From: an uncultured bacterium
GTDB taxonomy: Bacteria > Bdellovibrionota_C > UBA2361 > CALJRW01
Assembly (NCBI GenBank): GCA_937976335.1
Contig: CALJRW010000025.1
Span: forward strand, 7,103 to 71,102
Reading direction: 5' to 3'
Length of the DNA stretch: 64,000 bases
Part shown: positions 1-17,177 of the stretch, in pieces
Position numbering within the stretch: position 1 is the stretch's first letter
How the letters are laid out: each line of letters starts with the position of its first letter
Position numbers and translations under genes: made by a program
The notes under the pieces: generated by a model
Seen by the model: the letters and a program-made list of their open reading frames with translations, nothing else
Databases searched by the model: none
What the model was told of the DNA's origin: nothing

Positions 1-1033
1 AGAGCGCTTTATGCATCGCAGCATAACTTCTATTCGACTTTGGAGCTGTTGCAAGATAAGTAATACATTGTGCAATAGGAATTCGTCCTTCAGGTAAACC
101 TAATGCATTAAATGCGGCAAGTGTTGAAGTCGCTAAAGTTAGAGCTCTAGGGTCAGCATTTCCAACATCTTCACTCGCAAAGATAATCATTCTTCGAATT
201 AAATATCTTGGATCTTCTCCCGACTCGAGCATTCTAAAACCCCAAAAAAGCGCAGCATCTGGGTCACTTCCTCGCATACTTTTAATAAAGGCAGAAATCA
301 TATGATAGTGTTCATCAAGATCGTAGAATAAAGTTTTATTTTGTTCTAAAATTTTAAGTACTTCTTCTTTCGTAAATTGATTTTTCTCTGGCCTTAACTT
401 TCGAAGTTGCTCTATCGTATTTAACATTAGACGAGCATCTCCACCTCCAAATTCGCATAAAAATTTCTTAGAATTTTCATCAAACTTTAACTTCAAATAA
501 TTTTCAGCTCTAATTATGATATTATTTAAAGACTCTGATTCAAGAGATTTTAAAATTACAACTTTGGCTCTTGATAATAGCGCAGAGTTTAAATAAAAAC
601 TTGGATTTTCTGTGGTTGCCCCAAGAAGAACTATCGTGCCTGCTTCAATATGAGGTAGAAATGCATCTTGTTGAGATTTATTAAATCGATGTATTTCATC
701 TACAAATAAAACCGTTGGCTTGTTTTTTATTTTAGCTTCAGCGACAACTGTTTTTATGTCTTTTACTCCTGAAAGCACTGCCGATAACTCTCTAAAGGAA
801 CAGTCAAATAACTTTCCAACAAGTTTTGCTAAAGTTGTTTTTCCACATCCTGGAGGGCCCCAAAGAATCATTGAAGGAGGCAAGCCTTCGCCAGTTTGAA
901 GTAACTTATAAAGCTCAGGATGAGTTTTAGAAACTCCTTCAAGGTCACTTAATTTATTAGGCCTTAGGAGATCGGCTAAAGGTCTGTATTTTTCCTTAGA
1001 AGTTGCTTTTTGAAATAGTTCTAAGTTTGACAT
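1..1033 (-). CDS. rarA: Replication-associated recombination protein A (RarA/MgsA AAA+ ATPase). The gene starts at ~1033 (ATG) and runs off the window edge, so it is 3'-partial.
   Basis: Manual translation of the reverse strand from 1033 gives MSNLELFQKATSKEKYRPLADLLRPNKLSDLEGVSKTHPELYKLLQTGEGLPPSMILWGPPGCGKTTLAKLVGK...VLFVDEIHRFNKSQQDAFLPHIEAGTIVLLGATTENPSF..., with Walker A GPPGCGKTT and Walker B/sensor motifs typical of RarA. It is not in the ORF track because it is truncated by the window edge. Confidence 0.88.
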   Translation of the reverse strand, partial: MSNLELFQKATSKEKYRPLADLLRPNKLSDLEGVSKTHPELYKLLQTGEGLPPSMILWGPPGCGKTTLAKLVGKLFDCSFRELSAVLSGVKDIKTVVAEAKIKNKPTVLFVDEIHRFNKSQQDAFLPHIEAGTIVLLGATTENPSFYLNSALLSRAKVVILKSLESESLNNIIIRAENYLKLKFDENSKKFLCEFGGGDARLMLNTIEQLRKLRPEKNQFTKEEVLKILEQNKTLFYDLDEHYHMISAFIKSMRGSDPDAALFWGFRMLESGEDPRYLIRRMIIFASEDVGNADPRALTLATSTLAAFNALGLPEGRIPIAQCITYLATAPKSNRSYAAMHKAL

Positions 1034-1153
1034 AAAGGAACCTTTTTTTGACTCATTTTCTATATTCTTCGACTAATGACAAAAGATCAAGTTCTGAACT
1101 TTTGTTTAATAGGGCTGTTAAAAAATAGAATTCGTCACGAGAAAAAATAATTT

Positions 1154-2581
1154 TTAATCACCTAAAGCCTGCAAAATCGAACATATAGATCTAAATCCTT
1201 GCTCAAGCTGTCTGATAGAAAAAGATTCATTTGGCGCATGAATTGCGTCACCTGGCTCCCAAAACCCCAAGAGCAATGCGTTATTCTTTGTTAACTCTAC
1301 TAAACTAGCAACTATTGGCACAGAAGCTCCTAACCAACAATAGGCTACATCAGAGTTAAAAGTTTCCCCTAAGACCTTTTCAGCAACTTTTATATATTTA
1401 TTTTCAGATTTAAGCATTACCGCCCCACCCACTGCATCAAAAGAATTAAATTTAATTTTCATAGATTTAGGAAGTTTTCTTTCAAGGTGTGTTTTTATTG
1501 AATTTAATACATTTTTCGGGTCCTGTCCTGCAAAAAGACGACTTGAAAGAGTTGCTTTCGCGCTATTAGAAATTACAGACTTATTTCCTTCTCCAGTATA
1601 ACCAGAACTTATCCCATTAATTTCAATATTTGGTCTCCAGCCCATACGTTCTAAAGCAGAATATTGAATTTCTCCCCCATCTAATGTAGTGCCCGACATA
1701 TGAGATATCTCTTCTTCACTTAATGGAGTTGAGTTCATCTTAGACAGGTCTTCTTTCGAAATTTCTTCCATACCATCATAGAAACCTTCAACTGCAATAC
1801 TTCCATCTTCGTTATATAAACTTGCTAAGAGTTTCCCCAATTCAAGTGCTGGATTTTTTATCAAACCACCAAAAATTCCCGAATGCAGATCGCTTACTGC
1901 TCCAGAGATAGTAAAGTTAAGACTAACTACCCCTTTCATACCCATAGTAATAGTTGGGAAATTTGGTTTCACAACCCCCATATCACAAACCATTAAAACA
2001 TCAGATGCCAATCTTTTACTTATCAGGGGAAGCTTCTCTAAAATGCCTTGGCAACCAGACTCTTCCTCGCCTTCAATTAGAATTTTTAAATTACAGTTTA
2101 GTGCGTCATTTTCAATTAAATATTTTAAAGCTTGAAAGAAATAACTTACTTGTCCCTTATTATCACAAGCACCACGCCCGTATAGCCGACCATCTCTTAT
2201 TTCTGGAGAAAAAGGTTCAGATTCCCACTCTTCATATGGGTCAGCTGGTTGCACATCATAGTGCCCATAAAAAAGCACTGTAGGTTTGTTTTGATCGACT
2301 ACCATTTCCGCATACACCAAGGGCATAGTTTGAGTTTCTATCAGCTCACTTTTTAGTCCAATCTTAGCAAATTGAGTTAACAGCCAATCTGCACATTCAA
2401 GTGAATCTTTTTTAAATTCAGAGTCAGTACTTACACTCTTAAATTTTACAAAATCCTTTAAAAAAGAAATTATTTCATCCTGATTTTCAGAAAAATATTT
2501 TTTTACTTCAGAATCTGATTTTTTCATTGATTTTTCCTTGCGCTTTACTGCAACTACTATTAATTTATAATTGTAATTCAA
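1154..2581 (-). CDS. M20 family metallopeptidase (dipeptidase / ArgE-DapE-CPG2 superfamily)
   Basis: 475-aa ORF. HYDVQPADPYEEW and GRGACDNKG motifs match the M20 zinc-peptidase active-site region. It is one long uninterrupted frame. Confidence 0.75.
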   Translation of the reverse strand: MNYNYKLIVVAVKRKEKSMKKSDSEVKKYFSENQDEIISFLKDFVKFKSVSTDSEFKKDSLECADWLLTQFAKIGLKSELIETQTMPLVYAEMVVDQNKPTVLFYGHYDVQPADPYEEWESEPFSPEIRDGRLYGRGACDNKGQVSYFFQALKYLIENDALNCNLKILIEGEEESGCQGILEKLPLISKRLASDVLMVCDMGVVKPNFPTITMGMKGVVSLNFTISGAVSDLHSGIFGGLIKNPALELGKLLASLYNEDGSIAVEGFYDGMEEISKEDLSKMNSTPLSEEEISHMSGTTLDGGEIQYSALERMGWRPNIEINGISSGYTGEGNKSVISNSAKATLSSRLFAGQDPKNVLNSIKTHLERKLPKSMKIKFNSFDAVGGAVMLKSENKYIKVAEKVLGETFNSDVAYCWLGASVPIVASLVELTKNNALLLGFWEPGDAIHAPNESFSIRQLEQGFRSICSILQALGD

Positions 2582-3218: not shown

Positions 3219-3281
3219 ACTCAAAAAACATATTTTGCATTAATTCAAAGATTAGTCTTCACAGAATTAATTTTCACAGAA

Positions 3282-4541
3282 CTAATCTTTTCTGAGACTC
3301 CAACCTATTATATTACCGTCTCTGTCTTTAATTGGCGCGTACCATCTTCCATCTTTTGGAGCTGATTGATAGGGATTGTTTTTCTCATTACTACGATCCT
3401 TAACCGATCTCCATTCACTGTCACTCGCCGTACCACCACGTTGCCCTTTAGCTGACCTCCATTGACTCTCAATAGCTCGATTCTGATTTCCATCTCTACC
3501 ATTCTCAGACCTCCAACCTTCACTGCTAGGACCTACTCTTGGAGTATTGTTTGTAAATTGAGGATTCTTGTTCTTTAAATCTTCTCTACGTATATTAGGG
3601 TTAAAAACAGGGCTAACTCTTGGATCAGGTTCTCCGGCCAGAAACCAATTTATCCATGATGATTGAAAATCTGACATATCTTTAAAGCCATAATGTTTCC
3701 TTATTGTCTTTTCCCAATTTAATGTCTTAAGACCATCTTTCACAAAATGAGAAAAAGGTATTTTCCCCTTAAGCCCTACTAGCATAGCAGCCATCGAACG
3801 ACCTTGAGCATAAATAGCCAACTTATCCTTAGGATAATTTTGCATCTCAATAATCTTATTAAATGGAATAGTTCTTAAATTCTTTGGGTTAAAAACTTCA
3901 TATAGTGCTTCTTGGCGCTCTCTTATACTCCTCGCATCTTGTACATTTGAAGAAACACCTTCATCAATCCAAATTGGGATACCATTTCCATAAAAGATAG
4001 CATTGGCTACATGCATAATTTCATGTGGCAAGACAGATTGAATAACCTCCTTGTTAGTTCCAGATACTTTTTGAGAAATATCAAAAACTCGGCCATCTTT
4101 AAAAATTACTGTAGTTTGTCCTCTAAATTCTTCATCAGTTCTATTAAAAACCTCTATAGGAATCCTCAAATTTTCTGCCCACGCTGGAAGCTTCTCTCCA
4201 AACCATTCCTTAAAATGACTATGCAAGTAATACTCAGCAGCTTGAGCTACTTCATGTGCAAACTCAGGAGATGAAGCCGTTACAATAAAATGATGGCTTC
4301 TTCTGGAATGGGTATTAGCTGTTTTTACATCTTCAGATAATTCACTAGCAATACCAGATTCATATCTAGGACTTCTGAATATATCTTCAGTTCTTCCTTG
4401 TTCTCTTATCTCGTTTACTGAAAAATTACGGCTAGGCAAAGTTCCTTGAGCGTTAGGATTATTCTCATTTAACTTTTGAGTGCGTTCACTATCTAGAACA
4501 GAAACTCCTACACCACCCTGCTTATCACTAAAATCTGGCAT
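3282..4541 (-). CDS. Hypothetical protein with HExxH zinc-metalloprotease motif and C-terminal Trp-containing tandem repeats
   Basis: 419-aa ORF. HEIMHVANAIFYGNG contains HExxH. The C-terminus carries repeated ...SEGWRSENGRDGN / ESQWRSAKGQRGG / DSEWRSVKDRS / DGRWYAPIKDRDGN units. No obvious signal peptide. Confidence 0.55.
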   Translation of the reverse strand: MPDFSDKQGGVGVSVLDSERTQKLNENNPNAQGTLPSRNFSVNEIREQGRTEDIFRSPRYESGIASELSEDVKTANTHSRRSHHFIVTASSPEFAHEVAQAAEYYLHSHFKEWFGEKLPAWAENLRIPIEVFNRTDEEFRGQTTVIFKDGRVFDISQKVSGTNKEVIQSVLPHEIMHVANAIFYGNGIPIWIDEGVSSNVQDARSIRERQEALYEVFNPKNLRTIPFNKIIEMQNYPKDKLAIYAQGRSMAAMLVGLKGKIPFSHFVKDGLKTLNWEKTIRKHYGFKDMSDFQSSWINWFLAGEPDPRVSPVFNPNIRREDLKNKNPQFTNNTPRVGPSSEGWRSENGRDGNQNRAIESQWRSAKGQRGGTASDSEWRSVKDRSNEKNNPYQSAPKDGRWYAPIKDRDGNIIGWSLRKD

Positions 4542-4696
4542 TATAACCTTCTTAAACCACTAATAAACCTATATATATTATTTGATTAGCTTCTCATTAA
4601 CTATTATGATTGAAATTAGGCAATAGGTAGCAAATTTATCTAAGAAATTTAACTCAAGATTGTGAGCATAAATAAAAAGCATTTAGGAGTTCTAAA

Positions 4697-5677
4697 ATGT
4701 TAACACAAGCAAAATTAGCACTAAAAAGCATATGTGCATCTTCTACTAAAATAGCTAAAAAATTTGGTATCGAAGCTACAAGCATTGCAGCTACAGTTAC
4801 TGCTCCTTTTACGGCTGGGATATTACCTCCTTTACCTACAGCTTTAAGCCTCACAGGTGCAACTTTTCTAACTGCTAACCTTTTACCAAGCAAAGCAGAA
4901 GCTCAAAACTTTCGTGATATTCAACAAGGATTAAACATTTTAAATCAAGGTATCTTTACTGGAAGAAATATTTTTGGAAGTGTTGAAAGGGCTCGTAATC
5001 TAAAATTTAATAGGCAAATTGCTGAAGCGGAAGCAAGAGCTTTCACCGCACAAGCAAGACTTCGTGAAGCTCAGGCAAATGCAAGAATTATTGAACTACA
5101 AAGACAAGGATATAATGTAGGAGGTTATCAAGGCGGCTACCAAAGTCCCTATCAAAATCAGCCATATCAACAATATAGAACTACTGTTCCTCAAGTTGCT
5201 CCTCAAGTTTTTTATCCAAATGCAAGAAGTCCTCAGCCAGCAAATTTTAATACATACACTCTACCTCCAGCACCAAATTCATCTCCTTACAACAGAAGTT
5301 CTGAAGCAATTCCCTTAACAGAGTGGACTCCAGTTCCAACGAATAAAAATACAAATACGTATCGAAATCAACCAAATCAAAACTACAACAATAATCAAAG
5401 CTACGCACCTCAAAGCCTAACTCCAAGAGTAAATCAAGCTTCAAATCAAGCACTAGATAATGTGTATAAAATAAAGCTAGCTACTGACGGTAAACCTTAT
5501 ATTACAGAAACTAATTGCTATGTAATTACGAATAGAAATGGAAATTTCAGAATAAGCGCTAGTATTAGCTACGATCATGGAGTTCCGGTCAAAGTACGAG
5601 ATGAAGATACTGGCAAGGTATTAGAAGTTACATATAATAGAAATGACTATACGATGAACGTAAAGGCTAGGAATTAA
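4697..5677 (+). CDS. Hypothetical protein with Q/N/Y/P-rich prion-like low-complexity central region
   Basis: 326-aa ORF with good RBS (AGGAG 8 nt upstream of the ATG). Ala-rich hydrophobic N-terminus, then QGGYQSPYQNQPYQQYRTTVPQVAPQ...NQPNQNYNNNQSYAPQ, then a structured C-terminus (YVITNRNGNFRISASISYDHGVPVKVRDEDTGKVLEV). Confidence 0.6.
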   Translation: MLTQAKLALKSICASSTKIAKKFGIEATSIAATVTAPFTAGILPPLPTALSLTGATFLTANLLPSKAEAQNFRDIQQGLNILNQGIFTGRNIFGSVERARNLKFNRQIAEAEARAFTAQARLREAQANARIIELQRQGYNVGGYQGGYQSPYQNQPYQQYRTTVPQVAPQVFYPNARSPQPANFNTYTLPPAPNSSPYNRSSEAIPLTEWTPVPTNKNTNTYRNQPNQNYNNNQSYAPQSLTPRVNQASNQALDNVYKIKLATDGKPYITETNCYVITNRNGNFRISASISYDHGVPVKVRDEDTGKVLEVTYNRNDYTMNVKARN

Positions 5678-5736
5678 AAAGGCAATTTAAGTGAAATTTT
5701 TTTACGCCTTCTCAAGCATGTCCAAGAAAAACAAAC

Positions 5737-7380
5737 TTACAATTCAGGCGAAACAACTCTATTAAAGGTGTTAAGCTCCCATATAACTTGAAACCTTTCT
5801 AAGGACCAAATACTACCTCTAGTTAATATTAAAATTTTTTCATAAAATTCAGCTAATTGAGTATTCTCTAATAAGTTTTCCTTACTCTTTAAACTTTCTA
5901 TATAAGCAGTTGGAATTTCTTTTGTTATATGTCCAATTCGAAAATTTTTTGGCGCAATTTTTATTCTAGAAAGTAAGGGATCTGCTAAACCAACGTTATC
6001 AACTATATGAATTCCAGGGCCCGAATAAAACCCCAACAAACCAATTACTTGTTCTACAAAATAGATTTGATGTTTACCTAATCGCTTTTCTGTTTTCTTA
6101 TGTGCCCTTCGATGCCTTAGGCCAATCTTTGAAGAATAAGCTTGAATTGGCTTCTTTGTTAAATTAATTCCATATTTTTTAAGGCGTGGCAGAAGTCCAG
6201 TATATTTATAGTAAAAGGCTCTTTCATCTATCACTCCATTTTCAGTAAACATCTGTTGGCCTTTAACATCTTCTTCCCCATAATTAGAGTCTGTAGTTAG
6301 AGGAGAGTACGGATCGAAAACTAATGAGAAAAGTAATATTAGTATCGTAAAGACACTAAGAGCTTTTTCACTATAACCAGCTTTATTATATATCCTTAGA
6401 GAAGTCACAATAAAAACAAAAATTGGGCAACTTAAAAACCTACCACTCATAAAATCACCACCAACTACAATAGTCACATAAAATATATAGATAAAACTTC
6501 CTAATAAAATTAAAGCTTCAATTGTATATTTTTTTAAAACTGCTATAAAAAAAGTAGCTAGCCCTAAAATACAAAATAACGCGCTAGCTGGATCGTTTAA
6601 AAAAGAAACTCTCAGATACTCAATTCCCATAGAAAATTTAACGCTTGAACTTATATCTAAAGAATACAACTTAGCGAAGGCTGTGTTAGGAAAAGGTGTA
6701 CCATAATATATAGTAGAGAAAATAAGCCAACAAAAAGCTGGAGAAATTGATAAAAATAGTTTTCCAAAATAAGCAATATAAGCATTCTGAATCTTTGATA
6801 AATCTCTAATCAATATATAAACAAGTAACGGCAGAGAAAATAATAGCAAATCAATACGATTTACAAAGAGTAAGGAGCTTAGAAAGAATAATTTCAAGGT
6901 ATTTATTCTTACAAAACTTAAGCGTAGAAAAATACCTAGTAGTAAATAACTTAAAGGATTTTCTAAGCCAGAAGTTGAATAGTCTACAAAAGCTTTTGAG
7001 CAGATTAATAGACTAACTAAGACAAAGTTTCGTAAAAATCTTCCATTACTCTCTAAAAACAGTAAGACCGCACTCGAGCTCAAAATCAAACTAAGAATTA
7101 TATTACTTAAGTAAATCTCTTTTGTAAAAAAATAAATAATTGTATTTACTATGAGCCACAATGGATGAGTATAAGACTGAACTCTTTCTTCAACATTCCA
7201 TCGGAGCCCGTAACCATTTATAAAGTTATCTATGGTTCTAAATGAAATATATGCATCATCACAAAGCCATGCACTTTTGATCAAAATGGCTAGAAGAAAA
7301 AGTAGTAATAAAATTTTGCCATATTTATCTAACCTGCTTCTAATGGCATCTAGAAAAGATATAGGCTGAGCTATAATCAT
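5737..7380 (-). CDS. Polytopic membrane protein, putative GT-C fold glycosyltransferase (ArnT/PMT-like)
   Basis: 547-aa ORF with >10 predicted TM helices. The first periplasmic loop has CDDAYISFR, resembling the acidic DD/DE motif of GT-C (GT39/GT83) transferases. It has a large soluble C-terminal domain. Confidence 0.4.
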   Translation of the reverse strand: MIIAQPISFLDAIRSRLDKYGKILLLLFLLAILIKSAWLCDDAYISFRTIDNFINGYGLRWNVEERVQSYTHPLWLIVNTIIYFFTKEIYLSNIILSLILSSSAVLLFLESNGRFLRNFVLVSLLICSKAFVDYSTSGLENPLSYLLLGIFLRLSFVRINTLKLFFLSSLLFVNRIDLLLFSLPLLVYILIRDLSKIQNAYIAYFGKLFLSISPAFCWLIFSTIYYGTPFPNTAFAKLYSLDISSSVKFSMGIEYLRVSFLNDPASALFCILGLATFFIAVLKKYTIEALILLGSFIYIFYVTIVVGGDFMSGRFLSCPIFVFIVTSLRIYNKAGYSEKALSVFTILILLFSLVFDPYSPLTTDSNYGEEDVKGQQMFTENGVIDERAFYYKYTGLLPRLKKYGINLTKKPIQAYSSKIGLRHRRAHKKTEKRLGKHQIYFVEQVIGLLGFYSGPGIHIVDNVGLADPLLSRIKIAPKNFRIGHITKEIPTAYIESLKSKENLLENTQLAEFYEKILILTRGSIWSLERFQVIWELNTFNRVVSPEL

Positions 7381-7528
7381 TTAACTTATTTAACACATTG
7401 TCTTAAGTACTCATACATGACTTAACCCCTCAAAATCATTAAAATATCACATATAAAACTAACCCCCTATAACATCAGTGTTAGAAAATTTGAATAAATC
7501 ACTTTTAAGAGATAGATTTGAACCCTGT

Positions 7529-9476: not shown

Positions 9477-10637
9477 ATGCATAATAATTATGAATTTTTA
9501 AGTTCATACTCGGCAAACTCAAGCAAAAGACCAACCTTTGCAGAAGTAAATTTAAAAGTCATTCAGGAAAATTATCAAGTCATTAAAAAACATGTTGCTC
9601 CTTCAAAGGTTATGGCAGTGTTAAAGGCCAATGCATATGGCCACGGTATTGTACCGGTCGCAAAGCATTTAGAATCTTTTGGAGCAGACTACTTTGGAAT
9701 TAGCCTACTAGAAGAAGGTATTCTTTTAAGAAAAGCTGGAATTAAAACTCCAATTTTAGTATTTGGCGGAATTAACTACCAACAAATTGATGAATTTATT
9801 AAACATGACCTAACTATCACTGCCACGTCAGATCAAAAACTTTTAAATATAGAAAAAGCTGCAAGAAAACTAAGTAAAAAAGCTAAAGTACATATACAAT
9901 TTGATATTGGTATGAACCGTGTTGGGTTTAGACCTGATAAGATTGTAGAAATTTTTCAACTAGTAAATTCTTTAGAAAATATTAAAGTTGAAGGACTCTA
10001 CTCACACTTTAGTGAATCTGAATCTGAGGATTTAAACGAAACTAGAAAACAGTTAAAAAAGTTTAACTCTGCAATAAACAAGCTAAAAGAAAATAAAATA
10101 TCACTACCACCTATTTTACACATTTCTAATTCAGGCTCAATCTACCAACTACCCGAAGCTAATTTTGATTGCGTTAGATTAGGTTCCGCTCTTTACGGCT
10201 ACGAACCAGCAATGCATCTAAAAAACAAATTAGCTATCAAACCCGCCTTAACCTGGAAATCTAAGATAATATACTTTAAGGTTATACCAGCTGGAGCTAA
10301 AGTAAGTTATGGCTCTACTTGGACCGCAAAAGAAAAAACTAGAATTGTCACTATCCCTGTTGGTTACGGAGATGGCTACCCGCTTGCTCTATCGAATAAA
10401 GGAAAAGTAATTATTAAAAATAAAACTTATGAAATAGTCGGCAAAGTCTGTATGGATCAAATTTTAGTTAATATTAATTGGGATGAAGCTTTTAATGGAG
10501 ATGAAGTCATTTTACTCGGCAGCTCAGAAGCTCATGAAATTAATGCTTGGGATATCGCTAAGAACACTAGCAATAATCCTAGAGAAGTGTTGTGCGCTAT
10601 TAGTGCTCGGGTTCCAAGGGTTTATATTGAGGACTAA
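9477..10637 (+). CDS. alr: Alanine racemase
   Basis: PLP-binding motif VLKANAYGHG near the N-terminus. ~386 aa with typical two-domain length. Immediately follows dxs with a 4-nt gap. Confidence 0.88.
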   Translation: MHNNYEFLSSYSANSSKRPTFAEVNLKVIQENYQVIKKHVAPSKVMAVLKANAYGHGIVPVAKHLESFGADYFGISLLEEGILLRKAGIKTPILVFGGINYQQIDEFIKHDLTITATSDQKLLNIEKAARKLSKKAKVHIQFDIGMNRVGFRPDKIVEIFQLVNSLENIKVEGLYSHFSESESEDLNETRKQLKKFNSAINKLKENKISLPPILHISNSGSIYQLPEANFDCVRLGSALYGYEPAMHLKNKLAIKPALTWKSKIIYFKVIPAGAKVSYGSTWTAKEKTRIVTIPVGYGDGYPLALSNKGKVIIKNKTYEIVGKVCMDQILVNINWDEAFNGDEVILLGSSEAHEINAWDIAKNTSNNPREVLCAISARVPRVYIED

Positions 10638-14429: not shown

Positions 14430-17177
14430 GTGAATAAGATTATTTTTGTAATATTAACTTTTTTTACTCTTCTCATTCTACCCACTACTTCGCTTTCACA
14501 AGATGAAGTTGATGAGAAGTCTACTGAAATTAATGTTAAAGATGCCGATATCGCAGCTGTAATTAGAATTTTTAGTAAGAAAACTAAAAGAAATTACTTA
14601 ATGGATGAAAAAGTCAAAGGGAAAGTTTCTATATATCTTCCTGGAAAAGTTTCTGAAGAAGAAGCTGATAGAATTCTTGATGCAGTGTTAGCGATTAAAG
14701 GATTCACAGCTGTACCAATAGGAGACAATCTTTGGAAGATAGTTCCCTCAGGTGAAGCTAAGCAAACAACAATTCCAACTATCAAAAAAACAGATGGTAG
14801 AGGCTCCCCTTCTATAGTAACCAGAGTTCTTAATTTAACTTACGTTGCTGCTGACGAAGTAAAACAACTCATACAGCCTTTGGTCTCAAAAGATGGCCTT
14901 TTAAATGCATACACAGGAACTAATTCCCTCATTCTAATTGACCATGAAGAAAATATTAAAAGACTAGAAGAAATTATTGAATCTTTTGATATTCCTTATA
15001 CAAATAGAGAAATGACAATCATTCCTATTGAGTATGCAGAGGCGCCTGATGTTGCAGATAAGATTAATCAAATACTATCTGAAAATAATGATTCTTCTAG
15101 CCAAAGTGGGAATCAAGGTTTGTTAAATGCTAGAGCGACTTTAAATGCCAATGTCGCTGCGCGTTCAAATAGCCAGGCAGGAAAAGCCAGTGCTGGAGGG
15201 ATTGGAAGTTCTTCTCTGACTGTTAGCGCTCGTTCTAGAGCCCCAAAAATTATCGCTGACGAAAGAACTAATTCAATTATCTTAGTTGCAGATGAAGATA
15301 CGACTGCAAGAATTAGAGCTTTAGTTTCTGAACTAGATAGCCAAATTGATAGATCTGGTAGCAAATTTTATGTATACAGATGTCAGCACGCAGATGCTGA
15401 AGACTTAGCTGATGTTTTGTCAGGCCTGTCTGGTGAAGGAGGATCAGTGGGTAGTAGAAACAACGCATCTTCCTTTGCTGGAAGAGGCTTAAATACACCT
15501 AGTGGTAGAAATAATTCAAATAATAGAAATAGTAGAAGTCAAAATAGATTAAGCAGTCAAAGTAGAACACCAGGAAGATCGAGAACAAGTAATTCTAACA
15601 CTGGCAATTTATCTGCAAATCTTGGTGAAGATATTTCAATTACGGCTGACCCATCTACAAATTCATTAATCATTAATGCTAGTAAAACTGACTATGCTAA
15701 GATTTTAAGTCTTCTAAAAAAGCTTGATATCAAAAGACGTCAAGTGCTTGTTCAAGCTGTTATTTTAGAAGTTGGTGTGAATGATACTGTGGACTACAAT
15801 ACTGAGTTTACAGCATCAGGCGGCGGTTCAGATGGCGGTATATTTGCTGCCAATGGCGGTGGTAGCTTAACACAATTACTTAGCAATCCAACTGCACTAG
15901 ATAGATTCACAGTTGCTGCTGCTAGCCAAGGAGTACTAACCTTGCCAGGGAATTTAGTAATTCCTTCGCAAACTGTGCTTTTACAAGCTGCACAAACTGC
16001 TTCTAACGTTAACGTTTTAAGTGCTCCAAACATTTTAGCTACTGACAACGAAGAAGCAGAAATTGTTGTTGGACAAAACGTTCCATTCTTAGCTAGTACT
16101 GCTTCAAACAGTCAAAACTTAAATAACACCTTTAATCAAATTGACAGACAGGATGTTGGAATAACCTTAAGAATCACACCTCAAATAAGCTCGAGTGATT
16201 TTGTAACCCTTAGAATGTTTACTGAAGTTTCAAGTGTTGTAACTGGTACATCAGGCTCTGATTTAGGCCCAACCACAACAATCAGAACTAGTGATACAAC
16301 AGCAATAGCCAAAGATAGCCAGATGATAGTTGTAGGTGGTTTAATGGCTGATGACATCACGGAAAGCGAAAGTGGAATTCCTTTCATTAAAGATGTTCCT
16401 TTTATCGGACATTTCTTTCAATCAAAAACTGAAGTTCAACGAAGAACTAATTTACTAATCTTCCTAACTCCAACGATAATCAGAGACCAATTTGATCATA
16501 GAGATCTAACGCTCGAGCACAGAGATGTTCTTCAAAAAGACATTGATAATTATAAAATTTATCCTACTAGGAAGGAAAAACTTTATCACAAAGATCTACA
16601 TTCAGTTATTGAAGGGAAACCTTATAGTGGCCCTGTTCCTGGAACTATACTTCCTCCAATAAAGTCTAGAACTAAAAACACTAACTCAATGTCTAAAGAG
16701 AAAGATTCTCTCGCTCTTAATTCTCCGTTAGCAAATTCAGACACCAGACAATTCTCTGTTAAACCAAAACTTCCTGAAGTTCCTAATAAGAACTTCAGAA
16801 GCAATAATGAGATCGATCCTGTAGCTTCAACTCTATTAGGAAAAACTCAAAAAAGTAACTTTGGTAAGTTTGTAGTCCTTGAGACTGATAACCTTAGTTC
16901 AGGGACTCCTTTAACTATCGATCCTGATTCAAAGCTTACTATGATTCAAATTCCTAAAAATGTTCCCAGTGAAGTAAACAGTTTTTTCCGCTCGGGAGAG
17001 ACATATTCATACAACACAGGAGATCATAACAATTTAGGATTAAAGGTTATGGGAATCTTTAACTCTGCAGAAGAAGCTTCTAGTTTTTACTCAGATCTAC
17101 CGAACAATTGGCATACATTATCTTCTTTTGAAAGTCTCAATATTGGAAAATCACCCTGGATAAAAACAAAAAAATAG
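14430..17177 (+). CDS. gspD: Type II secretion system secretin GspD, with internal low-complexity insertion and long C-terminal extension
   Basis: Signal peptide. N0/N1 domains (NVKDADIAAVIRIFSKKTKRNYLMDEKVKGKVSIYL). Secretin core (VLVQAVILEV...NVLSAPNILATDNEEAEIVVGQNVPF...IVVGGLM...LLIFLTPTII). Extra S/N/R-rich tract at aa ~330-400 and ~230 aa after the conserved C-terminus. Confidence 0.9.
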   Translation: MNKIIFVILTFFTLLILPTTSLSQDEVDEKSTEINVKDADIAAVIRIFSKKTKRNYLMDEKVKGKVSIYLPGKVSEEEADRILDAVLAIKGFTAVPIGDNLWKIVPSGEAKQTTIPTIKKTDGRGSPSIVTRVLNLTYVAADEVKQLIQPLVSKDGLLNAYTGTNSLILIDHEENIKRLEEIIESFDIPYTNREMTIIPIEYAEAPDVADKINQILSENNDSSSQSGNQGLLNARATLNANVAARSNSQAGKASAGGIGSSSLTVSARSRAPKIIADERTNSIILVADEDTTARIRALVSELDSQIDRSGSKFYVYRCQHADAEDLADVLSGLSGEGGSVGSRNNASSFAGRGLNTPSGRNNSNNRNSRSQNRLSSQSRTPGRSRTSNSNTGNLSANLGEDISITADPSTNSLIINASKTDYAKILSLLKKLDIKRRQVLVQAVILEVGVNDTVDYNTEFTASGGGSDGGIFAANGGGSLTQLLSNPTALDRFTVAAASQGVLTLPGNLVIPSQTVLLQAAQTASNVNVLSAPNILATDNEEAEIVVGQNVPFLASTASNSQNLNNTFNQIDRQDVGITLRITPQISSSDFVTLRMFTEVSSVVTGTSGSDLGPTTTIRTSDTTAIAKDSQMIVVGGLMADDITESESGIPFIKDVPFIGHFFQSKTEVQRRTNLLIFLTPTIIRDQFDHRDLTLEHRDVLQKDIDNYKIYPTRKEKLYHKDLHSVIEGKPYSGPVPGTILPPIKSRTKNTNSMSKEKDSLALNSPLANSDTRQFSVKPKLPEVPNKNFRSNNEIDPVASTLLGKTQKSNFGKFVVLETDNLSSGTPLTIDPDSKLTMIQIPKNVPSEVNSFFRSGETYSYNTGDHNNLGLKVMGIFNSAEEASSFYSDLPNNWHTLSSFESLNIGKSPWIKTKK

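Follow-up and report, generated by a model that had tools for sequence, protein, structure and literature searches.

The window analysed here, a stretch of 64,000 nucleotides from an uncultured bacterium, carries at 4697-5677 a gene for a 326-residue protein in which a proline-punctuated low-complexity region separates a helical N-terminal half from a small C-terminal domain. As the preliminary description of this DNA had it, the gene lies between one encoding a protein with a metalloprotease (zincin) motif and one encoding a GT-C-like membrane protein. The features of the region are the following.

3219 to 7477, no strand assigned: lineage-specific three-gene block occupying the slot that has a Pal-like OmpA gene on one side and dxs on the other, as compared with the slot in relatives
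3282 to 4541, reverse strand: gene for a 419-residue Peptidase_MA-like (zincin-motif) protein, member of the block
4582 to 4610, forward strand: candidate sigma-70-type promoter, TTGATT-17-TATGAT, 9 of 12 consensus matches
4685 to 4689, forward strand: ribosome-binding site AGGAG, 7 nt 5' of the ATG, read from the sequence
4697 to 5677, forward strand: coding sequence of the 326-residue orphan protein, ATG start, stop codon included
4697 to 4771, forward strand: basic segment, residues 1-25 (five K/R, no D/E), predicted amphipathic helix (2-22, low confidence)
4772 to 4891, forward strand: uncharged Ala/Thr/Leu/Pro-rich, weakly hydrophobic segment, residues 26-65, with PPLP at its centre, followed by AEA-Q
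4892 to 5107, forward strand: long predicted alpha-helix, residues 66-137, rich in R/A/Q/E, its second half containing Ala-rich heptads
5108 to 5446, forward strand: Pro-punctuated Q/N/Y/T/S-rich low-complexity region, residues 138-250, predicted disordered from composition, statistics and the AlphaFold model
5108 to 5176, forward strand: run of [G/P]YQ motifs, residues 138-160, GYNVGGYQGGYQSPYQNQPYQQY, degenerate and resembling the Sup35 oligopeptide repeats
5447 to 5674, forward strand: small beta-rich C-terminal domain, residues 251-326, four to five strands, pLDDT 50-63 (AlphaFold)
5737 to 7380, reverse strand: gene for a 547-residue GT-C-like membrane protein, member of the block

The open reading frame is a real gene, because a canonical AGGAG precedes the ATG by 7 nt, bearing out the strong ribosome-binding site of the preliminary description, codon usage in the annotated frame is of the coding type, and at this base composition an open frame of 326 codons would arise by chance with a probability of only 1e-11 per start, or approximately 1e-6 for the whole window. 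The codon log-odds of the annotated frame are positive in all three segments (0.47, 0.26 and 0.21 bits per codon) and, over the whole frame, negative in all five other frames, one antisense frame being marginally positive (0.05) over residues 1-137. The promoter at 4582-4610 is to be taken as a candidate only, since the region holds no more sites of this kind than expected from shuffling; it sits in a divergent intergenic region of 155 bp that is common to the 419-residue protein gene. The sole other copy of the gene is 100% identical in DNA and apparently derives from the same sample.

The 326-residue protein is a strict orphan, with no relative detectable in the databases searched. No above-threshold match was found in Pfam, NCBIfam, PHROGs or PADLOC, and none in the PDB sequences (best hit, actinohivin, E 0.16 over 25 residues), while tblastn against phage and plasmid collections was equally negative. 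Both a word-indexed search of 5.8e9 clustered sequences and an exhaustive phmmer search of 1.84e9 cluster representatives returned the protein itself alone, and phmmer with the full protein and each of its segments against the six-frame open reading frames of the window and of 18 loci gave no paralogue or homologous neighbour. Orthologues without the Q/N tract had been named in the preliminary description as a second outcome that would speak against its view, but the databases searched contain no orthologue for such a comparison. The nearest dxs to that of this lineage is only 64% identical. The slot between the Pal-like OmpA gene and dxs is variable: it is empty in five of the seven informative distant Oligoflexia-like relatives and occupied by unrelated genes in the other two, the proteins encoded there being secreted and lineage-specific, one of them with collagen repeats. 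The orphan status, along with the position in a variable slot, fits an accessory protein that evolves rapidly rather than a conserved component of a machine. A mobile element or defence island was considered for the three-gene block and rejected: it shows no GC anomaly, flanking repeats or tRNA, and no match to phage or defence families.

The relation with the GT-C neighbour was also considered. The two genes are convergent and thus do not form an operon. The homologues of the GT-C protein retrieved in the genome-collection and metagenome scans are only 32-46% identical and are spread over many phyla, and at none of the 31 homologue loci from other phyla that were inspected is there a neighbour similar to the 326- or the 419-residue protein, so that a pairing of the GT-C protein with the 326-residue protein as its substrate is not supported.

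The N-terminal region was described in the preliminary account as Ala-rich and hydrophobic. It is indeed Ala/Leu/Thr-rich (Ala, 20%), but its hydrophobicity falls within the range of the soluble enzymes of the window. The maximum Kyte-Doolittle mean over 19 residues is 1.27 (at least 1.97 in the signal-peptide and transmembrane proteins of the window), and over stretches of 10 residues within the first 40 the highest mean is 1.32 (at least 2.1 in the same proteins), values that group the protein with dxs, alr and GspE and not with the approximately 19 signal-peptide or membrane proteins. A Hessa-type sum comes to +6.1 kcal/mol, whereas in the signal-peptide and membrane proteins encoded in the window it does not exceed 2.7. 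With this internal calibration on window proteins, and with hydrophobicity scales that are crude, the signal-peptide and membrane-helix check suggested in the preliminary description detected neither a canonical Sec signal peptide nor a transmembrane helix. A type IV pilin or Flp N-terminal signal was rejected by eye (FG-IE, lacking Glu at +5), as was a lipoprotein signal (no lipobox at the N-terminus). Lacking a canonical signal peptide and a transmembrane helix, the protein is most likely cytoplasmic, or else exported by a non-Sec route, although residues 26-65, with PPLP at their centre, may form a re-entrant hairpin or a weak membrane anchor.

The structure models are of low confidence because no alignment can be built: AlphaFold2 run without one gave a mean pLDDT of 48.5 for the full-length protein and 49.2 for the C-terminal 88 residues. 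The full-length model contains helices at 2-22, 27-39, 46-60 and 66-136, with pLDDT values of 66-80 for residues 100-140, and strands at 269-323. The sub-threshold match of residues 66-137 to the ATP synthase b-subunit helix (E 0.032) reflects helical composition only. The beta-rich C-terminal domain of the preliminary description is probable: some six alternating hydrophobic/polar strands, separated by the turns DGK, NRNGN, DHG, DTGK and NRND, can be read from the sequence of residues 251-326, but strands are modelled only with the low pLDDT of 50-63. A Foldseek search of the PDB with this low-confidence C-terminal model retrieved no matching fold (best E 1.2, meaningless), and no match to TonB_C, TolA_C, SPOR or ZipA_C was found at the C-terminus in Pfam, NCBIfam, PDB sequences or the fold search with the same model. 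The domain may have a binding role.

The low-complexity region is the most distinctive part of the protein. Both peptide strings quoted in the preliminary description are present, and so is the bias towards Q, N, Y and P that was claimed for the middle of the protein, over about 110-120 residues rather than about 150. In residues 138-245 there are 17 Pro (16%), 16 Asn (15%), 13 Gln (12%) and 12 Tyr (11%), with 9% Thr and 7% Ser; the best 80-residue window contains 44 Q/N/Y/P, a count that in none of the 54 other putative genes exceeds 24. For the {Q,N,Y,P} set, over residues 135-257, the minimum binomial probability is 1.2e-16 if all amino acids are given the same background frequency, and 2.2e-22 if the proteome of the window itself serves as background. 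As the bias is significant against its own proteome, the 33% GC of the genome does not explain it, and AT bias as its sole cause was rejected. Other disordered loops encoded in this AT-rich genome are visibly moved towards Asn by AT bias. A recent expansion by microsatellite slippage was also rejected, as no tandem DNA repeats were found under the tract, synonymous codons are mixed and the GC content (0.38) is above the genome mean. The region carries hardly any charge (fraction of charged residues, 0.07, over residues 138-250) and contains 12 Tyr and 5 Arg in approximately 110 residues. Its 17 prolines are 1-12 residues apart, and the longest Pro-free stretch counts 13 residues. FoldIndex is negative across residues ~91-250 and the AlphaFold model has no secondary structure at 142-260 (pLDDT, 30-45), both suggesting that the region is intrinsically disordered.

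The composition had been likened to that of yeast-type prion domains, and scores below prion-like thresholds had been named in the preliminary description as the outcome that would speak against this view; such scores were obtained for the Q+N count, for the PrionScan-type score and, with its standard averaging, for the PAPA-type score. The criteria and tables were taken from PMC8409284, PMC3654983 and PMC6947906, and the scores are re-implementations from the published per-residue tables rather than the full PLAAC and PAPA algorithms, with Sup35 as the control. In yeast-type prion-like domains, 30 or more of 80 consecutive residues are expected to be Q and/or N (as quoted in PMC8409284); the best 80-residue window here contains 23. 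The PrionScan-type score, which served as a proxy for PLAAC since its table shares with it the training domains of Alberti et al., is 32.7 bits for residues 140-199 (Table 1 log-odds, without the scattered-proline penalty), below the cutoff of at least 50 bits of log-odds in a 60-residue window (PMC3654983) and well below the 74.5 bits of Sup35. For PAPA, the prion propensity has to reach 0.05 where FoldIndex is negative (PMC6947906); the PAPA-type score, from the Toombs odds ratios with the standard 41 x 41 averaging, is 0.016, as compared with 0.092 for Sup35. The sub-threshold scores are due to the prolines scattered every 1-12 residues. The Toombs odds ratio of proline (0.30) is among the most prion-inhibiting, only Lys (0.21) and Asp (0.28) being lower, and scattered prolines are a hallmark of non-prion Q/N-rich proteins (PMC3654983, its Table 1 for the ratios). 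An exception is the 23-residue GGYQ/PYQ patch at 138-160, which holds the only Pro-free stretch of at least 12 residues of the region, with a Tyr every 3-5 residues over 139-160: within the tract it alone looks locally prion-like, and the single 41-residue window 132-172 reaches 0.084 on the PAPA scale, against the threshold of 0.05.

The preliminary description also held that such proteins are rare in bacteria, which is overstated, as an average bacterial proteome contains, according to surveys, approximately four disordered proteins rich in N/Q and approximately 11 that are predicted by PAPA/PLAAC (PMC6400439). Membership of the former group, the NQID set of Harrison 2019, requires disorder and an N/Q bias whose P, from fLPS with an equal background, does not exceed 1e-10 (PMC6400439). 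The minimum binomial probability for {N,Q} in the present protein, obtained with a simple binomial scan in place of fLPS, is 5.8e-11 over residues 70-255, marginally past that limit.

Comparison with known systems helps placing the protein. As in the N domain of Sup35, the tract is polar, nearly uncharged, Q/N/Y/G-rich and predicted to be disordered, and the [G/P]YQ run recalls the PQGGYQQYN repeats; in contrast with Sup35, which passes the composition scores, the tract is sub-threshold, its Q+N content (~27%) is roughly half that of the Sup35 control, and it has 16% scattered proline and no oligopeptide repeat array. Bacterial prion-like domains with experimental support are the N-terminal insertion of Clostridium botulinum Rho and the linker of Campylobacter hominis SSB (PMC8409284, PMC6400439). 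They share with the present protein an N/Q-rich disordered segment on folded modules and a sporadic evolutionary distribution, but belong to conserved, recognizable hosts and pass PLAAC-type prediction, whereas here the host is an orphan without known domains and the tract is below thresholds. The functional amyloids CsgA (curli) and FapC are also Q/N-rich, but they carry a Sec signal peptide, contain imperfect tandem repeats that fold into a beta-solenoid and have secretion operons of their own, none of which is present here. The surface-adhesion, spore-coat or functional-amyloid role envisaged in the preliminary description thus finds no support: neither a Sec signal nor a transmembrane helix, neither imperfect tandem repeats (nor tandem repeats at the DNA level) nor a Pfam or NCBIfam match was found in the 326-residue protein.

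Disordered linkers rich in Pro, Gln or Gly are well known in bacteria, as in SSB, ZipA and FtsN and in the Pro-rich spacer of TonB. Like them, the tract is a Pro-punctuated disordered spacer of low or patterned charge that would connect a module at the N-terminus with a small binding domain at the C-terminus, so that by analogy the architecture of the 326-residue protein would functionally most resemble that of these linker proteins. There is, however, no sequence or family relationship with them, the tract is Tyr- and Asn-rich as theirs generally are not, and the transmembrane anchor of ZipA, FtsN and TonB was not detected. With the SYGQ domains of the FUS family the tract has in common the Tyr content (~11%), short G/S/Q/N spacers between the tyrosines and a near-zero charge; it differs in being much shorter, richer in Pro and poorer in Gly and Ser, bacterial, and devoid of an RNA-binding module. 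The Tyr density (12 in approximately 100 residues) is near that of FUS-type domains, so that self-association could be the main function and not a side effect.

The explanation that we prefer, with middling confidence, is that of a lineage-specific, three-module orphan, probably cytoplasmic or exported by a non-Sec route, whose low-complexity middle is a disordered flexible linker unlikely to form amyloid. The N-terminal half would be helical, starting with a basic amphipathic helix that is followed by a weakly hydrophobic segment of Ala, Thr and Pro and then by a helix of ~70 residues, the uncharged, Pro-punctuated Q/N/Y/T/S-rich linker of ~110 residues would join it to the beta domain of ~75 residues at the C-terminus, and the regularly spaced tyrosines might contribute weak self-association. 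Were this association the actual function, the Tyr/Arg-studded uncharged region would drive reversible phase separation or higher-order assembly, akin to FUS-type SYGQ domains or to the bacterial SSB linker, and its clients would be recruited through the helical and beta modules. The tyrosines and arginines, the low charge, the predicted disorder and the probable cytoplasmic location are in line with such a condensate scaffold. Prolines disfavour amyloid and not liquid-like association, as in elastin- and resilin-like sequences, so that their scattering is compatible with it as well. However, these arguments are all compositional, the tract is short beside known drivers and no RNA-, DNA- or client-binding domain was recognized in the family searches, which leaves this explanation rather improbable. 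A true prion or amyloid, in which the Q/N/Y-rich region would turn into a self-templating cross-beta structure nucleated by the GGYQ/PYQ patch, is very unlikely because prolines break the region every 1-12 residues; the likeness of the patch to the Sup35 repeats, its single window above the PAPA threshold, the N+Q bias just past the limit of Harrison (PMC6400439) and the precedents of Rho and SSB (PMC8409284) are to be set against values that stay below threshold on all three measures, with PrionScan even when the proline penalty is spared and with PAPA after double averaging, whereas the Sup35 control passes them all.

It is improbable, too, that the product is a structural protein of the envelope or a secreted one, with residues 26-65 as the anchor or with non-Sec export, and with the P/S/T/N-rich tract either serving as an extended spacer or being glycosylated by the GT-C protein, by analogy with the Pro/Thr-rich O-mannosylated mycobacterial proteins or with spacers of the TonB, TolA and FtsN type. 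The succession of a basic N-terminus (25 residues without an acidic one), an uncharged segment of 40 residues with AEA-Q after it, a helix, a Pro-rich spacer and a small C-terminal domain does mimic that of bitopic tethers, the neighbours encode a GT-C-like protein and a Pal-like OmpA lipoprotein, and relatives keep secreted proteins, including the collagen-repeat one, in the same slot. Yet the hydrophobicity is far under that of every signal peptide and transmembrane segment of the window, the putative anchor has PPLP at its centre, the convergent orientation and the 31 homologue loci argue against a link with the GT-C protein, and no sorting signal of the T9SS, LPXTG or PEP-CTERM type was matched in the family searches. 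Finally, the strict orphan status, the variable slot and the low-complexity content would suit a functionless or barely functional young gene, arisen de novo or highly degraded and open by chance. The length of the frame at 33% GC, the gene-like codon usage of all three segments, the canonical ribosome-binding site and a predicted secondary structure that is modular rather than random make this decidedly unlikely.

As it stands, the finding matters little, as Q/N-rich disordered segments number a few per bacterial proteome and the tract fails the prion-specific criteria. It also shows that a composition judged by eye to be 'Q/N/Y-rich' is insufficient, as scattered prolines can abolish the predicted prion propensity. 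With no relative among approximately 15 billion predicted proteins and a variable slot as its location, the gene cleanly illustrates how a lineage of a poorly sampled clade can have gene content of its own. If the Tyr-rich tract does drive assembly in vivo, it would be a non-homologous addition to the few prokaryotic prion-like or condensate scaffolds. There is only a slim chance that a Sup35-like [G/P]YQ tyrosine-sticker tract has evolved independently and drives a reversible condensate or a self-templating cytoplasmic assembly; were it so, the protein would be a new lineage-specific bacterial scaffold without homologues, from an unsampled AT-rich Oligoflexia-like lineage.

The open reading frame of the Q/N/Y/P-rich protein (here, the target) and its immediate surroundings comprise the following features:

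4685-4689, forward strand: ribosome-binding site AGGAG, seven bases 5' of the start codon
4697..5677, forward strand: target open reading frame, ATG start, 326 aa
3282-4541, reverse strand: gene of a 419-aa divergent Peptidase_MA-like zincin with a HEIMH...E motif
5737-7380, reverse strand: gene of a 547-aa multi-TM protein that matches arabinofuranosyltransferase-type GT-C enzymes below threshold

Translation of the frame returned both peptide strings quoted in the preliminary description. With codon log-odds derived from the window's other long genes, the annotated frame scored positively throughout (N-terminal part, 0.47; low-complexity part, 0.26; C-terminal part, 0.21 bits/codon), and the other five frames were negative across the entire ORF; by segment, a single antisense frame was marginally above zero, at 0.05, over aa 1-137. 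With stops making up 7.4% of codons in the local composition, the chance of 326 codons remaining open is 1e-11 per start and approximately 1e-6 for the window. Tandem Repeats Finder, run on 4600-5750 down to a score of 30, found no repeats. In the tract the synonymous codons are mixed and the GC content (0.38) is higher than the genome mean, and recent slippage expansion as its origin was therefore ruled out. A second assembly (Logan contig, ERR9287621) matches the window over 8746 bases with 100% identity, but it apparently derives from the same source and thus carries no information on polymorphism.

The compositional bias is confirmed. Residues 138-245 contain 16% P, 15% N, 12% Q, 11% Y, 9% T and 7% S, only 8 of 113 residues of the tract being charged (fraction, 0.07), and the best 80-residue segment holds 44 Q/N/Y/P residues, the runner-up among the 55 putative genes of the window reaching 24. 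A binomial scan of aa 135-257 gave P = 1.2e-16 with all residues taken as equally frequent and 2.2e-22 when the proteome of the window served as background, so that the bias is real rather than a by-product of a 33% GC genome; the tract spans approximately 110-120 residues, less than the approximately 150 initially proposed. The window is far more AT-rich than the nearest sampled relatives (39-59% GC). Its second highest PrionScan-type score, 28 bits, belongs to a disordered N/S/R-rich loop (aa approximately 335-395) in the N-domain region of the GspD secretin (14430-17177, forward strand), which in GC-richer relatives (GC 53-59%) aligns with a G/S/R-rich loop; here the AT mutational bias of the genome visibly affects low-complexity sequence.

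As judged from sequence searches, the target is a strict orphan: a word-indexed search of 5.8e9 clustered proteins and an exhaustive phmmer search of 1.84e9 representatives returned only the protein itself, tblastn against phage and plasmid collections gave no match, and neither the window nor any of the fetched loci contained a paralogue. The host is Gram-negative, the window encoding BamD, a Pal-like OmpA lipoprotein, PBP1A and a T2SS cluster. At 90% identity its dxs product clusters with no other sequence, and no known sequence exceeds 64% identity to it, the named best matches being Oligoflexia or 'Deltaproteobacteria' MAGs. A scan of species-representative genomes did not return the window's own genome, even with exact peptides of it as patterns. 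The 64 kb contain no tRNA and no Rfam family.

In the seven informative relatives, distant ones with dxs 61-63% identical, the common order is M20 peptidase (reverse), Pal-like OmpA (forward) and dxs (forward), continuing on longer contigs to BamD and then GspC-D-E-F; the space between OmpA and dxs is a slot within an otherwise conserved block of MgsA, M20 peptidase, OmpA, dxs, BamD and GspCDEF. In five of the seven relatives (loci L015, L016, L017, L020 and L021) dxs directly follows OmpA, while the slot of L014 holds a single unrelated 145-aa secreted orphan, and that of L018 two genes, for a secreted protein with collagen repeats and for a Cys-rich protein. In the window the slot (3219-7477) contains three unrelated genes on alternating strands, those of the 419-aa protein, the target and the 547-aa protein, and in this block neither a GC anomaly nor a flanking repeat, tRNA, phage match or defence match was found. 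The target thus lies in a slot of variable content, and none of the sampled relatives has it. The short gap that separates the stop of the Pal-like gene from the 3' end of the gene of the 419-aa protein contains a tandem 15-nt duplication (3251-3280, ATTAGTCTTCACAGA / ATTAATTTTCACAGA). Directly 3' of dxs the window has an alanine racemase gene (9477-10637, forward strand), missing there in all relatives examined, which instead have two small ORFs lacking annotation, often with pantoate ligase. In L020, a Hint/PT-HINT domain protein (343-1377, reverse strand) adjoins the conserved MgsA-M20-OmpA-dxs block.

Among 5.8e9 proteins the 419-aa protein has a single, distant homologue (P0003, 37% identity), which matches PF13485 at E 3.7e-4, and it represents a divergent Peptidase_MA-like family essentially without sampled members. 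At its N-terminus it has an 80-residue polar extension where P0003 has a signal peptide, and its C-terminal tail carries short W-containing repeats (EGWRSENG, SQWRSAKG, SEWRSVKD, GRWYAPIKD). The 547-aa protein has no Pfam match and scores 66 bits (cutoff, 1050) with the terminal beta-(1->2)-arabinofuranosyltransferase model. With homologues at 32-46% identity in Myxococcota, Chloroflexota, Gemmatimonadota, Latescibacterota, Acidobacteriota, Planctomycetia and one Woesearchaeota MAG, it looks like a member of an uncharacterised, horizontally mobile GT-C-like family. Since no gene like the target or the zincin adjoins the GT-C homologue at any of 31 loci, and the three slot genes are separate transcription units (the first pair divergent, the next convergent), the neighbourhood yields no functional link for the target.

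Prion-likeness was estimated with PrionScan-type and PAPA-type scores, computed from the published per-residue tables (log-odds of PrionScan, and the odds ratios of Toombs et al. on which PAPA is based; Espinosa Angarica et al. 2013, Table 1, PMC3654983), with Sup35 NM as the positive control. The best 60-residue PrionScan-type segment (aa 140-199) gave 32.7 bits before any proline-pattern penalty (cutoff, 50 bits, PMC3654983; Sup35 NM, 74.5 bits), the PAPA-type score with standard 41x41 averaging was 0.016 (threshold, 0.05, PMC6947906; Sup35 NM, 0.092), and Q+N reached 23 in 80 residues (criterion, 30, PMC8409284). All three values fall below threshold, the outcome that the preliminary description had itself set against its proposal of a prion-like composition. 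The low scores are due to proline, whose odds ratio in the Toombs data is 0.30 (PMC3654983): the tract has 17 prolines at gaps of 1-12 residues, with a longest Pro-free run of 13 residues, and scattered prolines have been described as characteristic of Q/N-rich proteins that are not prions (PMC3654983). A short patch with local prion-likeness remains, in that one 41-residue window (aa 132-172) reaches 0.084 on the PAPA scale and includes GYNVGGYQGGYQSPYQNQPYQQY, which resembles the Sup35 repeats; in a simple binomial test, N+Q over aa 70-255 (P 5.8e-11) is marginally past the Harrison 2019 cutoff of 1e-10 (PMC6400439). A true prion or amyloid domain is rated very improbable. By taking into account that a bacterial proteome contains approximately 4.3 N/Q-rich disordered proteins and 11 PAPA/PLAAC predictions (PMC6400439), and that PrionScan flags approximately 0.3% of bacterial proteins (PMC8409284), Q/N-rich tracts of this type are uncommon in bacteria, yet not remarkable. 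Condensate formation or assembly driven by tyrosine stickers appears fairly unlikely.

The N-terminus was calibrated on the window's own proteins by maximal 19-residue and 10-residue Kyte-Doolittle means. Exported and membrane proteins (GspC, GspD, GspF, pseudopilins, PBP1A, NtrY, BamD, the Pal-like lipoprotein and the GT-C protein) reach at least 1.97, and at least 2.1 over 10 residues where the segment is N-terminal; cytoplasmic enzymes (dxs, alr, GspE, M20 peptidase) stay at or below 1.65. At 1.27 and 1.32, respectively, the target thus has no canonical Sec signal peptide or TM helix by this calibration, so that the surface, adhesin or curli-like role initially suggested loses its basis. 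The first interpretation as a whole is only partly supported. A 40-residue uncharged Ala/Thr/Leu/Pro stretch with a central PPLP might at best provide a membrane-associating element of a weak or re-entrant type. An envelope or secreted spacer, possibly glycosylated, is unlikely, and a young ORF without function is considered quite improbable.

AlphaFold2, run without an alignment and of low confidence (mean pLDDT, 48.5), predicted helices at 2-22, 27-39 and 46-60 and a long one at 66-136 (pLDDT 66-80 at aa 100-140), nothing at aa 142-260 (pLDDT 30-45) and strands at aa 269-323 (pLDDT 50-63). The C-terminus modelled separately gave five strands (pLDDT 49), and a PDB fold search with this model matched no fold (best E, 1.2); by sequence reading, the last 75 residues consist of approximately six strands, in which hydrophobic and polar residues alternate strictly, with Gly/Asn/Asp turns between them. 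There is about an even chance that the target is a lineage-specific modular protein, in which the Pro-punctuated, uncharged polar tract would be a disordered flexible linker joining the helical N-terminal half to a small beta C-terminal domain, probably in the cytoplasm. The target, without relatives, is new in sequence, while its kind, bacterial proteins with low-complexity disordered segments, is already known and fairly common.
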